Shown here piece by piece: positions 44,820 through 49,855 of a stretch of DNA of 57,210 nt; the stretch's first letter is position 1; the number at the start of each line of letters is the position of its first letter. The stretch lies in assembly GCA_014584455.1 (NCBI GenBank), contig JACTMV010000564.1:1-57210 (forward strand), given 5' to 3'. The notes beneath the pieces were generated by a model that searched no databases, was not told where the DNA came from, and saw only the letters and a program-made list of their open reading frames with translations. Origin of the DNA: Pseudomonadota bacterium. GTDB lineage: Bacteria > Myxococcota_A > Polyangia > Haliangiales > Haliangiaceae. The position numbers were made by a program, and so were the translations under genes.

Positions 44820-44890
44820 GCGGCATTGGTGTAACAGCAGCACCCCGGGCCTCCACCCCGGTCGTGCGGGTGCAAGTCCCGTGTGCCGCG
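44820..44890 (+). tRNA. tRNA-like, anticodon TCC (Gly); non-canonical family B: T-loop TGCAAGT (G55), D-loop AACAGCA (no G18G19), C33
   Basis: 7/7 acceptor (one G-U), perfect anticodon stem, loop CCTCCAC. Confidence 0.5.
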
Positions 44891-44911
44891 CTCCTGGTCC
44901 GGCGCTCGCTC

Positions 44912-44982
44912 GCCGGTCGCCTCGCTGGCGCGAGGGGCTGCCCCGTAAGCAGCCTGCCCCGGTTCGATTCCGGCGACCGGCT
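44912..44982 (+). tRNA. tRNA-like, anticodon CGT (Thr); non-canonical D-arm (6-bp stem, 4-nt loop), C33
   Basis: 7/7 acceptor, perfect anticodon stem, loop CCCGTAA, T-loop TTCGATT; immediately upstream of rsr. Confidence 0.45.
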
Positions 44983-45031
44983 CTCCTGTCTCTCAACCCG
45001 TGCGCCCACGCCGTGGGCCGGAGGATCCGTC

Positions 45032-46627
45032 ATGTTCAAGTTCACCCGTCACGTCTCGACCCTGGCGACCCCGCCGTCGCAGCCGATCCCGGGGACCTCC
45101 CAGGTCCCCAACTCCGCCGGCGGCTACACCTGGTCGGTCGACGACTGGGCGCGCCTCGACCGCTTCCTCGTCCTCGGCAGCGAGGGCGGCAGCTACTACA
45201 TCGCCGAGCAGGCGCTCACGCTCGAGGGCGCCCAGGCGGTCCTCCGTTGCCTGGCCGTCGACGGCGCGCGCGTGGTCGCGCGCACCGCCGAGGTCTCGGA
45301 GGCCGGGCGCGCGCCGAAGAACGATCCGGCGATCTTCGTGCTGGCGATGGCCGCCAAGCTCGGCGACGAGGCCACCCGCAAGGCGGCCTACGCCGCGCTG
45401 CCGCGGGTCTGCCGCATCGGCACGCACCTGATGCACTTCGCCGAGTACGCCCAGGGCTTCGGCGGCTGGGGACGCGGCATGCGCAAGGCGGTGGCGAGCT
45501 GGTTCAATGCCCGCTCCGCCGACGAGCTGGCGCTCCAGCTCGTCAAGTACCAGGCGCGCGACGGCTGGTCGACCCGCGACCTCCTGCGCCTCGCGCACCC
45601 GCGCGCGGCCTCGCCGTCGCACGACCGCCTGTTCGCCTGGGTGACCAGCGGCGCGCTGCCCGCGGGCGCGGCCGCCGACCCGGCGCTCGCCCTCCTGGTC
45701 GCCAAGGACGCCCTGACCCGGATCACCAGCCCGCGCGAGGCGGCCAACGTGATCCGGACCCACCGCGTGCCGCGCGAGGCGGTGCCGACCGAGCTGCTCG
45801 CCCACGCCGAGGTGTGGGAGGCGCTCCTGGCCGACCTGCCGGTGACCGCGATGATCCGCAACCTCGCCACCATGACCCGCGTGGGCCTGCTCGCGCCGGG
45901 GGCGGACGCGACCAGGACGGTGGTCGCGCGGCTGGGCGACAACGCCCGGCTCGCCAGGGCCCGCGTCCACCCGGTCGCGGTCCTGGCCGCGCTCTTGACC
46001 TACGAGAGCGGACGTGGCGCCCGCGGCTCGGGCACCTGGACCCCGGTCGGTCCGATCCTCGACGCCCTCGACGGCGCGTTCTACGCGACGTTCGGCGGCG
46101 TCGAGCCGTCGGGCACGCGCACGCTGCTCGCGCTCGACGTGTCGGGCTCGATGAGCTGGGGTTCGATCGCCGGCGTCCCCGGCCTCACGCCCCGCGTGGG
46201 CTCGGCGGCGATGGCGCTGGTGACCGCGGCGACCGAGCGCGACCACACGCTGGTCGGGTTCAGCACCGAGCTCACGCCGCTGGCGATCTCGCCGCGGCAG
46301 CGGCTCGGCGACGCGGTCGCGGCCATCGACCGGCTGCCCATGGGGGGCACCGACTGCGCGCTGCCCATGCAGTGGGCGCAGCGCAACCAGGTCGACGTGG
46401 ACACGTTCGTCGTGTACACGGACAACGAGACGTGGGCCGGGAGCGTGCACCCGGCCCAGGCGCTGCGCGCCTACCGCCAGGCGCGCGGCATCCCGGCCAG
46501 GCTGATCGTGGTCGGGATGACGTCGAACGGGTTCTCGATCGCGGACCCGGACGACGCCGGCATGCTCGACGTGGTCGGTTTCGACACGGCGACGCCGCCG
46601 GTGATCAGCGACTTCGCGCGCGCCTAG
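45032..46627 (+). CDS. rsr: Ro60-related protein Rsr (TROVE domain + C-terminal vWA/MIDAS domain)
   Basis: Near-colinear with human Ro60. Compare GGYTWSVDDWARLDRFLVLGSEGGSYYIAEQAL vs [33 protein letters not shown]. vWA core: LLALDVSGSM...GGTDCALPMQWAQ...VYTDNETWAG...GMTSNGFSIADPDD. 531 aa; SD GGAGGA 6 nt upstream. Confidence 0.93.
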   Translation: MFKFTRHVSTLATPPSQPIPGTSQVPNSAGGYTWSVDDWARLDRFLVLGSEGGSYYIAEQALTLEGAQAVLRCLAVDGARVVARTAEVSEAGRAPKNDPAIFVLAMAAKLGDEATRKAAYAALPRVCRIGTHLMHFAEYAQGFGGWGRGMRKAVASWFNARSADELALQLVKYQARDGWSTRDLLRLAHPRAASPSHDRLFAWVTSGALPAGAAADPALALLVAKDALTRITSPREAANVIRTHRVPREAVPTELLAHAEVWEALLADLPVTAMIRNLATMTRVGLLAPGADATRTVVARLGDNARLARARVHPVAVLAALLTYESGRGARGSGTWTPVGPILDALDGAFYATFGGVEPSGTRTLLALDVSGSMSWGSIAGVPGLTPRVGSAAMALVTAATERDHTLVGFSTELTPLAISPRQRLGDAVAAIDRLPMGGTDCALPMQWAQRNQVDVDTFVVYTDNETWAGSVHPAQALRAYRQARGIPARLIVVGMTSNGFSIADPDDAGMLDVVGFDTATPPVISDFARA

Positions 46628-46692
46628 GCCAGGCGCGCCGCAGGGGTCGCACCAACACGCACGCGCCACGGCTCCCCCGCCGTGGCGTGTCT

Positions 46693-46764
46693 GGGTCTGA
46701 AGCTCCATGGCTGAGCGGCGGTCCGTTAAACCGCGAGGTGCGGGTTCGATTCCCGCCAGACCCT
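46693..46764 (+). tRNA. tRNA-Asn(GTT), with C33
   Basis: 7/7 acceptor, D-stem GCTC/GAGC, perfect anticodon stem, loop CCGTTAA, T-loop TTCGATT. Confidence 0.6.
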
Positions 46765-46814
46765 CGAGCTCGTGCCTTCCCAGGCGCCCCGGGCGTACGG
46801 ATGAGCACGAAGAT

Positions 46815-46887
46815 GCCCCTGTCAGACAATGGCGAGTCTGCCTGTCTCTCAAGCAGGCAATGGAGGGTTCGATTCCCCCCAGGGGCG
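46815..46887 (+). tRNA. tRNA-Glu(CTC)
   Basis: 7/7 acceptor, D-stem AGAC/GTCT, loop CTCTCAA, T-loop TTCGATT (one A-C mismatch in T-stem). Confidence 0.6.
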
Positions 46888-47056
46888 CCAGCGGGCCGGA
46901 TCGTGTCGGTTACCGAACTCTATCGGACCTAAGGTAGCGAACCCCGGGCGACCGGGTGAGCGAGCGCCGAGGAGCTCCCGCAGCTCTCAGGCGCGTGTCA
47001 GCGGCCTGGAGCGATCCAGGTGCGGACGTCACCGACGCGAGCCCCTCGTCCGTGCT

Positions 47057-47129
47057 GCCCCCGACCCGAGGATGGGACGCGACGCTACGAACGTCGACGG
47101 TGTGGGTTCGAATCCTGCCGGTGGCACCA
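47057..47129 (+). tRNA. tRNA-Arg(ACG)-like, CCA encoded, compact atypical D-arm, C4-U69 mismatch
   Basis: Perfect anticodon stem, loop CTACGAA, T-loop TTCGAAT, 3' ...GGTGGCACCA. Confidence 0.5.
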
Positions 47130-47171
47130 AGACGCGCCACCTCGGCACCTGACGGTGCCGGGGTGGATCAT

Positions 47172-47244
47172 CGCAGCGACCTCGGGCGAGGGCGCGCGGC
47201 TCATACCCGCGCCGAAGAGGGTTCGAGTCCCTCCGCTGCAACCA
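47172..47244 (+). tRNA. tRNA-Met(CAT), initiator-like (C1-A72 mismatch, three consecutive G-C pairs in anticodon stem), CCA encoded
   Basis: Acceptor CGCAGCG/CGCTGCA, loop CTCATAC, T-loop TTCGAGT; compact D-arm. Confidence 0.55.
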
Positions 47245-47246
47245 GC

Positions 47247-49098: not shown

Positions 49099-49173
49099 GG
49101 GGCCGTAGTTCAGCTGGGAGAATGCTGGCTCGGCAAGTCGGCGACGAGGGTTCGATCCCCTCCGGCTCCACCA
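49099..49173 (+). tRNA. tRNA-Ala(GGC) with G3-U70 identity pair, CCA encoded (C33)
   Basis: Acceptor GGGGCCG/CGGCTCC, canonical D-loop AGCTGGGA, loop TCGGCAA, T-loop TTCGATC, 3' CCACCA. Confidence 0.65.
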
Positions 49174-49236
49174 CGCACGTGGCCGCCACGTGCTCATCCG
49201 TCCGCTTCGCGGACACGTCGCTCCAGCTCTCGCGCT

Positions 49237-49312
49237 GGCGCCGGGGACGTCTGGTGACGTCGGGTGATTGTCGATCACTTCCAGGCGGGTTCGATCCCCG
49301 TCGGTGCCGCCA
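49237..49312 (+). tRNA. tRNA-Asp(GTC), CCA encoded
   Basis: D-stem GACG/CGTC, loop TTGTCGA, T-loop TTCGATC, 3' GCCGCCA. Confidence 0.7.
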
Positions 49313-49316
49313 CGCT

Positions 49317-49389
49317 GGCTCCGGGTACGTCTGGTGACGTTGGGTGACTGTCTATCACCCGCAGGCGGGTTCGATTCCCGTCGGAGCCG
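49317..49389 (+). tRNA. tRNA-Asp(GTC), second copy, no CCA
   Basis: Paralog of the previous gene (same D/T arms), 7/7 acceptor GGCTCCG/CGGAGCC, loop CTGTCTA. Confidence 0.65.
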
Positions 49390-49394
49390 CTCGA

Positions 49395-49464
49395 GCCCGA
49401 TCCCGATCCGTTCCCGATCCGTTCCCGATCCGTTCCCGTTCCGTTCCCGTTCCGTTCCCGTTCC
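49395..49464. repeat. microsatellite: (GATCCGTTCCC)x3 followed by (GTTCCC/GTTCC)x about 6
   Basis: Tandem short repeats in the spacer between tRNA-Asp copy 2 and tRNA-Ala(CGC). Confidence 0.85.
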
Positions 49465-49538
49465 GGGCCTGTCTTCCAGCGGAAGGATGTTGCTCTCGCA
49501 CAGCGGCGACGGGGGTTCGAGTCCCCCCAGGTCCACCA
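49465..49538 (+). tRNA. tRNA-Ala(CGC) with G3-U70, CCA encoded
   Basis: Acceptor GGGCCTG/CAGGTCC, loop CTCGCAC, T-loop TTCGAGT, 3' CCACCA. Confidence 0.6.
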
Positions 49539-49575
49539 CGCCCCGACCGCGCTCCCGCGCGGCGGGGACGCCCTC

Positions 49576-49647
49576 GCGCTCGTGGCCGAACAGCGAGGCA
49601 CACGGCTGCAACCCGTGATCAACCCGGTGCGACTCCGGGCGAGCGCT
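49576..49647 (+). tRNA. tRNA-like Cys(GCA); T-loop TGCGACT (G55), D-loop GAACAGCGA
   Basis: 7/7 acceptor GCGCTCG/CGAGCGC, perfect anticodon stem, loop CTGCAAC. Confidence 0.5.
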
Positions 49648-49674
49648 CGACGACACCGCGCGACACCTGCCCCT

Positions 49675-49746
49675 CGGGGCCAACGGCCTGGTGGCCTGGC
49701 GGTCCTCACACGGCTGCCGCGGAGAGTTCGATCCTCTCGACCCCGA
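49675..49746 (+). tRNA. tRNA-Val(CAC)
   Basis: Acceptor with one C-A mismatch, loop CTCACAC, T-loop TTCGATC. Confidence 0.5.
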
Positions 49747-49778
49747 CGACACGACACGACACGACGACACGACGACAC
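49744..49778. repeat. ACGACACG/ACGAC short tandem repeats
   Basis: GACGACACGACACGACACGACGACACGACGACACG between two tRNAs. Confidence 0.8.
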
Positions 49779-49855
49779 GCCCACCTGGTGATCCTGGTCG
49801 GACATGCTCCCCCGGTAAGGGAGAGAGGAGGGTTCGAATCCCTCGGTGGGCTCCA
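49779..49855 (+). tRNA. tRNA-Thr(GGT), C33, CCA encoded
   Basis: 7/7 acceptor GCCCACC/GGTGGGC, perfect anticodon stem CTCCC/GGGAG, loop CCGGTAA, T-loop TTCGAAT. Confidence 0.55.

Follow-up and report, generated by a model that had tools for sequence, protein, structure and literature searches.

We analyze here a tRNA gene array of the L-array type located at positions 43918-50102 (+) of a 57,210-bp stretch of a Haliangiaceae contig (JACTMV010000564.1; the whole stretch is hereafter referred to as the window), in which 12 of the 33 tRNA or tRNA-like genes (36%), distributed across ten amino-acid families, carry cytosine instead of uracil at position 33 of the anticodon loop (C33). U33 is among the most invariant nucleotides known in biology, and it is usually treated as a requirement of the anticodon U-turn. 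The literature describes it as present in 'almost all tRNAs' (PMC2275089, PMC3664417).

Structure of the array

The array is packed, together with two open-reading frames, into 6.2 kb of a window with approximately 75% GC, reaching a density of about 5 tRNA genes per kb with every member on the + strand. The anticodons cover all 20 amino acids (counting the Met-like, Ile and His members) and mostly contain G34 or C34. ARAGORN predicts 29 of the 33 members in default mode, and its low-threshold mode (-ps) adds Ile (47247-47319), His (47326-47396) and a second Ser (48716-48801); a Met-like member with anticodon CAT and U33, at approximately 47165-47240, was identified manually through comparison with its homologs in a related locus (L001). 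A search of the window with the Rfam tRNA model RF00005 yields 17 matches over the gathering score (29 bits), including the Ile member (38.3 bits), which ARAGORN reports only at low threshold; the His and Met-like members are weak predictions and neither has an Rfam tRNA match. Local duplications within the array are restricted to an Asp-Asp and an Arg-Arg pair. The two Asp(GTC) genes (49237-49390) represent a recent tandem duplication with units 87% identical, and so do Arg(CCG) and Arg(CCT) (49862-50018; 81%), where the difference in anticodon points to an apparent anticodon switch after duplication.

Tran et al. 2016 (PMC4758250) define a tRNA array unit as a minimum of 20 tRNA genes with 2 or more per kb, and both values are exceeded here; the single strand, short spacers, non-periodic order and isoacceptors for most or all amino acids that characterize L-arrays are all present. 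An HNH gene of the all8564 type is conserved beside L-operons and L-arrays (Santamaria-Gomez et al. 2021, PMC8421152), and a member of this family lies inside the window array (47944-48498, +; Pfam HNH_5/HNH), its product being 41% identical (E 7e-35) to the pCC7120delta HNH protein encoded beside the Anabaena trn operon. Given its gene number, its density and this marker gene, the array can be assigned from its sequence to a known kind, the L-array type, a class of tRNA arrays described as supernumerary and horizontally spread.

Twelve C33 loops and their register

The initial annotation had listed 12 loops as evidence for at least 12 array members with C33, and all of them were found on the + strand in the register it assigned. 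In the 5′ part of the array they belong to tRNA-Gly(TCC) at 44820-44891 (loop CCTCCAC at 44850-44856, with C33 at 44851; RF00005 43.3 bits), which has the T-loop TGCAAGT and a D-loop without GG; to tRNA-Thr(CGT) at 44912-44983 (CCCGTAA, 44942-44948; ARAGORN and stem scan), where C33 is common to the orthologs in L001, L002, L003, L009, L019 and L029; and to tRNA-Asn(GTT) at 46693-46765 (CCGTTAA, 46723-46729; 55.1 bits). Next to each other lie tRNA-Ile(GAT) at 47247-47319 (CCGATCA, 47277-47283; ARAGORN -ps, RF00005 and stem scan) and a tRNA-His(GTG)-like gene at 47320-47396 (CCGTGAA, 47352-47358; ARAGORN -ps and stem scan), which has an encoded CCA and the acceptor stem of its orthologs (GTGATCG/CGGTCAC), together with a degenerate D-arm and T, not C, as discriminator. 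They are followed by tRNA-Pro(GGG) at 47679-47755 (TCGGGGA, 47711-47717; 52.9 bits), tRNA-Leu(GAG) at 47774-47848 (TCGAGAA, 47806-47812; 47.5 bits), a tRNA-Ser(GCT)-like gene with a long variable arm at 48716-48801 (CCGCTAC, 48747-48753; Rfam clan match of 30.7 bits), tRNA-Pro(CGG) at 48829-48902 (CCCGGGC, 48859-48865; 49.8 bits), again with T-loop TGCAAGT, tRNA-Val(GAC) at 48929-49001 (CCGACAT, 48959-48965; 58.9 bits), tRNA-Ala(GGC) at 49099-49173 (TCGGCAA, 49130-49136; 54.6 bits), which keeps G3:U70, A73 and an encoded CCA, and tRNA-Thr(GGT) at 49779-49855 (CCGGTAA, 49812-49818; ARAGORN and stem scan).

Prediction of the tRNAs with explicit loop annotation by three approaches agrees on C at position 33. 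ARAGORN cloverleaves place it there in 11 of the 12 members; for Ser(GCT), ARAGORN picks a mismatched stem, and the perfect 5-bp stem CGCGA/TCGCG yields the loop CCGCTAC. The Infernal alignments to RF00005, ten of which were printed, show C in the U33 column of the model for Val(GAC), Asn, Pro(GGG), Pro(CGG) and Leu(GAG). In an exhaustive scan, the 7-nt loop was shifted from −3 to +3 and the flanking 5-bp stems were scored, and each of the 12 loops shows a single optimum, with 4-5 of 5 pairs at shift 0 and no more than 3 at any other shift. An error of register is thus ruled out by ARAGORN, Infernal and the stem scan. The array members show the cloverleaf, the 7-nt anticodon loop and the intact stems expected of tRNA (ARAGORN), most of them, C33 members included, with 43-59 bits against RF00005. 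Processed through the same pipeline, E. coli housekeeping tRNAs have U33, U8, U55 and GG in 25 of 25 cases and C33 in 0 of 25, and the C33 rate in the array is far above chance.

C33 in other tRNA arrays

The array contains a Ro60/Rsr ortholog (45032-46627, +) with TROVE and Ro60 von Willebrand factor A (vWA) domains (Pfam PF05731, 5e-43; PF25045, 5e-68). Through alignment of Ro60 homologs we assembled 80 genome loci (denoted by L numbers), mostly from metagenome-assembled genomes (MAG) of Kofleriaceae/Haliangiales and also from Chloroflexota, Gemmatimonadota, Armatimonadota and others, and ran ARAGORN on all of them. Position 33 is C in 107 of the 631 predicted tRNAs (17%), U in 518, A in 4 and G in 2, and C33 makes up 94/539 (17.4%) when only the 29 loci carrying 10 or more tRNAs are counted. 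Related Ro60-linked arrays were found across Myxococcota, Chloroflexota and Gemmatimonadota as well as on viral contigs, and one locus (L002) has flanking genes in common with the window.

Other arrays carry C33 as well. It is found in 21 of 193 tRNAs from Ro60-bearing IMG/VR viral contigs, in 2 of 23 from the array of mycobacteriophage Alice (Val CAC and Val GAC) and in 2 of 36 from an Acidiphilium plasmid array (Val GAC and Phe), with none in phage NootNoot (0/37; 49% GC) or in the Anabaena trn operon (0/24; 45% GC). The Acidiphilium array has no Ro60 and is missing from the Ro60 plasmid matches, and we consequently reject a dependence of C33 on Ro60. Altogether, C33 is a recurrent trait of mobile and auxiliary tRNA arrays that has been strongly amplified in a high-GC myxobacterial lineage. 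No mention of U33 or C33 was found in the tRNA-array literature searched, including Tran et al. 2016 (PMC4758250) and Santamaria-Gomez et al. 2021 (PMC8421152), and within that literature the trait has gone unremarked.

Pattern and turnover at position 33

Across the 80 loci, C33 is distributed unevenly among isoacceptors. It is frequent in Pro GGG (13/14), Gly GCC (15/25), Val GAC (7/9), Ala GGC (4/6), Ile GAT (10/24), Leu GAG (7/17) and His GTG (6/18), and is close to zero in Lys, all Arg, Gln CTG, Leu CAG, Trp, Ala CGC, Asp and Asn; the single Asn case among 38 in related arrays is the window copy, indicating a lineage-specific change. At the level of anticodon classes, C33 correlates with G34 (rho 0.49, p 0.003). 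It also rises with GC content, both over four bins of locus GC (5%, 9%, 18% and 25%) and over 29 arrays (rho 0.48, p 0.008). The initial annotation had noted C33 both in an odd 'family B' of members and in canonical-looking ones, and this holds among the 631 tRNAs, where C33 is enriched in, yet not exclusive to, those with a TGC T-loop (41/119, vs 60/488 for TTC).

Position 33 in the array family is constrained to a pyrimidine, because non-U33 is nearly always C (107 of 113, with 6 purines), while at position 8 all three other bases, A, G and C, are found in place of a lost U. Within that constraint the position turns over readily: among 125 pairs of orthologs from closely related arrays, 25 (20%) differ there, against 14% for the average site, and positions 32 and 38 differ in 26% and 24% of the same pairs. 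Changes between U and C run in both directions, with Asn, Leu GAG and Val GAC having C in the window and U in L001, and Tyr the reverse. The Pro GGG loop TCGGGGA is kept in 12 of 13 orthologs that have the T-loop of the window copy, and the acceptor and anticodon stems of these genes change by compensation. A separate feature concerns Gly(GCC), where C33 orthologs (L004, L005, L015, L057, L067; L002, L016) have the loops GCGCCAC or ACGCCAT, in which Watson-Crick pairing between positions 32 and 38 would be possible and would leave a 5-nt loop; the Gly(GCC) of the window has the ordinary loop CTGCCGT.

The explanation we favor for these patterns, to which we assign about an even chance, is a relaxed constraint on chargeable auxiliary tRNAs, with position 33 held only to a pyrimidine. 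Array members would be genuine foldable tRNAs, probably aminoacylated, that duplicate the housekeeping set; selection would act on their folding, charging and anticodon identity, and only weakly on decoding speed, such that U33 would relax to Y33. U and C would then exchange at a roughly neutral rate, high genomic GC would tip the balance to C, and C33 would persist best beside G34, as in Pro GGG, Gly GCC, Val GAC and Ala GGC. Since the N3-H with which U33 clamps the U-turn is missing from C33, less efficient decoding is expected, which would be a small cost for auxiliary tRNAs acting as a back-up under stress. In yeast, U33C lowers function and does not abolish it (PMC3664417). Charging, ribosomal use and the reason for the relaxation are inferred in this explanation from what is observed: the C33 state, how widely it is spread, how the site changes between relatives and the retained identity elements described below.

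Several results weigh against this explanation. GC pressure by itself does not account for C33, which is present in phage arrays of 34-55% GC (e.g. 3/22 in L097, at 34% GC, and 4/35 in L139, at 52% GC), and collapsing the orthologs leaves only a weak association of C33 with anticodon GC, or strength (rho 0.29, p 0.09). Real selection for decoding should protect U33 to some degree, and the near-neutral turnover is equally consistent with tRNAs under no selection for use on the ribosome. The C33 counts are moreover inflated by shared ancestry and are not phylogenetically independent, and the housekeeping reference is E. coli instead of the host's own tRNAs, with no usable housekeeping tRNAs of the same lineage located within the 10-kb flanks of the 80 related loci.

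C33 may instead be adaptive. The altered loop would be hidden from anticodon nucleases deployed in toxin-antitoxin systems, defence or competition, or from modifying enzymes such as tRNA-guanine transglycosylase, and the array would constitute a resistant back-up pool under attack. tRNA-guanine transglycosylase reads U33-G34-U35, a motif broken by the His CCGTGAA and Asn CCGTTAA loops. The recurrence of C33 in phage-borne arrays whatever their GC fits such a role, as does that of Val(GAC) C33 in arrays from four unrelated settings (the window, a mycobacteriophage, the Acidiphilium plasmid and a viral contig), and the Pro GGG C33 loop has been stable through long divergence. The Alice Val tRNAs are the sequences that van den Berg et al. 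2023 (PMC10264068) list for approximately 89% of 161 C1 phages and flag as carrying anticodon-loop 'mutations' relative to the host, and that paper proposes nuclease evasion. An association of L-arrays with RNA repair genes, and with stress under which toxins that cleave tRNAs are induced, has also been described (PMC8421152), and Streptomyces phage NootNoot encodes a Ro-like gene inside an array of approximately 40 tRNAs with RNA ligase, polynucleotide kinase and a band-7 protein. Against evasion, position 33 flips both ways at about the average site rate, a pattern that resembles drift more than directional selection, and no anticodon nuclease or toxin gene was found among the window proteins. 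The one nuclease tested in the literature consulted, yeast gamma-toxin, is indifferent to U33C (PMC2275089), and the tRNAs of Shigella phage Sf14 vary at positions 32, 37 and 38, never at 33 (PMC12482277). We regard evasion as the main rival explanation, possible though rather unlikely.

Identity elements and departures from the canonical fold

Across arrays, identity elements follow the anticodon. Ala tRNAs have G3:U70 in 25 of 29 cases, and the expected discriminators are found in His (C73, 12/12), Cys (U73, 12/14), Gly (U73, 25/31), Asp (G73, 19/22), Trp (G, 7/7), Ser (G, 23/27) and Leu (A73, 47/47). C33 members have on average fewer unpaired stem positions than U33 members (0.98 vs 1.53). 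In Anabaena, the array is induced by translational stress, and its tRNAs are charged in vivo and found on polysomes (PMC8421152). The identity elements, the lower number of stem mismatches, the restriction of position 33 to pyrimidines, which is what a retained U-turn-like loop would require, and the Anabaena precedent together favor the view that array members are chargeable tRNAs rather than tRNA-shaped ligands.

The same data argue against the idea that C33 genes are decaying pseudogenes in a redundant array, with C33 as a symptom of decay. Redundancy with the housekeeping set makes decay conceivable, three Anabaena array members are pseudogenes (PMC8421152), and the window includes weak members, such as His with its D-arm or Arg CCG and Arg CCT with mismatched acceptor stems. 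Yet C33 members are the better paired class, and most of them, at 43-59 bits, pass the Rfam gathering score. Stems change by compensation while loops are kept, the arrays retain their identity elements, and C is what replaces U at position 33. Conservation thus largely refutes decay, which we consider highly improbable.

Position 33 is not the only site at which the array departs from the canonical fold, since the tertiary nucleotides U8, G18-G19 and T54-psi55-C56 are incompletely represented, and several window members lack U8. Across the arrays, 26% of the tRNAs lack U8 (A in 10%, G in 8% and C in 7%), leaving U8 at 74%; G55 is found in 21% and a D-loop without GG in 18%, with some conservation figures biased by the T-loop requirements of ARAGORN itself. 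The loss of U8 seems compatible with function in the array family, by analogy with the experimentally charged Anabaena array, in which U8 is replaced in 7 of 24 tRNAs. A subclass with the T-loop TGCRANT (G55 for U) usually has a D-loop without GG, e.g. AACAGCAG. It is represented in the window at 44820-44891, 47247-47396, 47679-47755, 48829-49091 and 49576-49648, comprising 6 members listed by ARAGORN in default mode, 5 of them without D-loop GG, plus the low-threshold Ile and His. Across arrays, G55 is accompanied by the absence of GG in 87 of 111 cases, and U55 by its presence in 419 of 427, which suggests a covarying alternative D-loop/T-loop elbow. High-GC array tRNAs hence break several 'universal' rules, and annotators may under-call them.

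Ro60, the MVP-like neighbor and the surroundings of the array

The presence of Ro60 inside the array, and its co-occurrence with arrays in many lineages, raises the possibility that C33 members, or the whole array, are RNAs with roles outside translation: Ro60 or major vault protein (MVP)-like ligands, cargo, sponges or toxin decoys. A gene encoding an MVP-like protein of 846 aa (50106-52646, +; Pfam Vault_3, MVP_shoulder) starts four bases after the last tRNA, and its product aligns to residues 476-802 of rat MVP (E 2e-15). The further losses of U8, U55 and D-loop GG point the same way, position 33 evolves as if decoding efficiency were irrelevant, and a sponge role was raised by the authors of the Anabaena study (PMC8421152). 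However, ligands or cargo would have no need for the conserved identity elements and 20-amino-acid anticodon set, position 33 stays a pyrimidine, and the Anabaena homologs are charged and associated with polysomes. A ligand or decoy role gains nothing from Ro60, because C33 occurs without it in Acidiphilium, and little from the MVP-like gene, because among the 80 related loci it adjoins the array in only one (L067, 53% identity) and the linkage is not conserved. The YrlA signature of bacterial Y RNAs (Rfam RF02553) is missing too: the best window match, over two adjacent tRNAs, reaches 20.8 bits against a gathering score of 69, and 9 related loci yield no match, so we reject a Y RNA identity for the array members. 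We judge roles outside translation improbable.

A stronger version of this idea, in which the array RNAs without U33, with G55 or without U8 form the RNA part of a bacterial Ro60/MVP-like ribonucleoprotein (RNP), vault-like or devoted to quality control, and are not primarily decoders, appears to us very improbable. If it were true, the loss of U33 would mark RNAs freed from ribosomal constraint and still recognized by synthetases. The MVP-like gene and the nearby TROVE protein do recall the parts list of the eukaryotic vault, but the TROVE protein is of Ro60 type, and the MVP-like gene, though real, adjoins the array only here and in L067, short of the conserved co-occurrence with a TROVE protein and a dedicated small RNA that would define a vault-type RNP. 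The initial annotation had left the choice between atypical decoding and RNAs that are not ribosomal substrates, such as RNP ligands or decoys; the sequence evidence leans toward the former, that is, tRNAs decoding through a non-canonical loop, and away from the latter.

Homologs of the window Ro60 derive mostly from Kofleriaceae MAGs, the closest ones being labelled Kofleriaceae, and Ro-like genes are also present in tRNA-rich actinophages. The HNH gene is kept in most related Ro60-array loci at 65-92% identity (e.g. L085 2867-3403), a conservation that, on sequence identity, is far above what would be expected of a selfish homing endonuclease. Its homologs are also solitary genes on many alphaproteobacterial and actinobacterial plasmids, and those from Methylobacterium, Paracoccus, Curtobacterium, Tsukamurella and Sphingomonas have no array beside them. 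A known defence nuclease was rejected for this protein, given that PADLOC matches remain at motif level (PtuB, Cas9 and restriction HNH domains).

The flanks of the array are ordinary chromosomal sequence (kinases, peptidases, a TonB receptor). Genes for PEGA Ser/Thr kinases, for a TonB-dependent receptor and for SpoIIE/PP2C phosphatases in the window point to Myxococcota, and we take the source to be a Kofleriaceae-like myxobacterium. No integrase or phage gene was found among the window proteins flanking the array, and a prophage or mobile-element setting was rejected. A promoter and terminator scan found nothing. An additional ARAGORN prediction, 'tRNA-Val(CAC)' at 33120-33213 (+; 94 nt), is probably a false positive, as it lies inside a high-GC3 frame encoding a PP2C phosphatase (31259-33628) and has an abnormal T-loop.

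Some array spacers contain repeats. Between Gly(GCC) and Gly(TCC), at 44597-44804, an 87-bp unit is present in 2.4 tandem copies, 98% identical, each with a GCCCCCGAAGGGGGC hairpin, and shorter repeats are found at 49397-49465 (CCGTTCCCGAT, six copies), 49744-49779 (ACGAC type) and 48807-48831 (TCATCTG). A tRNA-free spacer of 164 nt located 3′ of Glu(CTC) (46891-47053, +) has lower GC and a strong fold. It includes a motif, GGGCCG...GGTTACC, common to tRNA-like elements of approximately 125 nt in related loci (L003 7572-7698; L006 14015-14138; L036 7865-7991; L054 8823-8958 and 9159-9280) that have an extra hairpin between D-arm and anticodon arm. This spacer may encode a Y-RNA-like Ro60 ligand, without a match to the Rfam YrlA model. 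Longimicrobium loci without arrays contain a lone tRNA-His(GTG)-like gene approximately 1 kb upstream of Ro60 (L050 174-249; L054 8729-8803; L056 8827-8898; L061 9058-9131), which carries C33 in all but one case, where the loop has 8 nt; in L054 the two extra-hairpin elements lie after this gene.

Comparison with known systems

Natural tRNAs without U33 include eukaryotic initiator tRNAs, with C33, and Candida tRNA-Ser(CAG), with G33. Like the array members under the relaxed-constraint explanation, they are functional, with altered decoding or recognition, but they are single specialized tRNAs, whereas in the window the change affects a third of a full elongator-type set. Another precedent for non-standard loops in tRNAs with G34 and GC-rich anticodons is the A32-U38 'tuning' element of E. 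coli tRNA-Ala(GGC), described by the Uhlenbeck laboratory and thought to weaken ribosome binding, thereby offsetting strong pairing. The corresponding loop, ATGGCAT, with A32 and U38, is seen in our E. coli set. The enrichment of C33 in Pro GGG, Gly GCC, Ala GGC and Val GAC resembles this arrangement, which involves positions 32 and 38 instead of 33, and a tuning role for C33 would be an analogy only.

Among arrays, the Anabaena PCC 7120 trn operon is alike in being a dense, same-strand, non-periodic and supernumerary set for nearly all amino acids, with an HNH gene of the same family, non-U8 tRNAs and one TGC T-loop. It differs in having U33 in 24 of 24 tRNAs and no Ro60, in contrast with the high C33, many G55, embedded Ro60 and chromosomal setting of the window. 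The C1 mycobacteriophages and Streptomyces BE-type phages combine a Ro60 ortholog with 20 to 40 tRNAs per genome, and the U32-C33 loops of Val(GAC) and Val(CAC) in Alice and other C1 phages can be likened to the window Val(GAC). These are, however, phage genomes with little C33 (Alice) or none (NootNoot), and in Alice the Ro gene lies far from the main array and the array HNH is unrelated. Bacterial Y RNAs (YrlA; PMC4201824) are also tRNA-like RNAs encoded beside a Ro60 ortholog, but they lack the full anticodon arms, anticodons and identity elements of the array members.

Implications

The array tolerates a change at position 33 that ordinary tRNAs, as represented by the E. coli set (U33 in 25/25), do not. 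C33 arrays bear on what auxiliary arrays are selected for, and on whether loop changes in mobile tRNA sets reflect drift or evasion of defences. With hundreds of well-folded, identity-bearing genes in which U and C interchange at position 33, array tRNAs provide a natural series for asking how far U33 matters in decoding.

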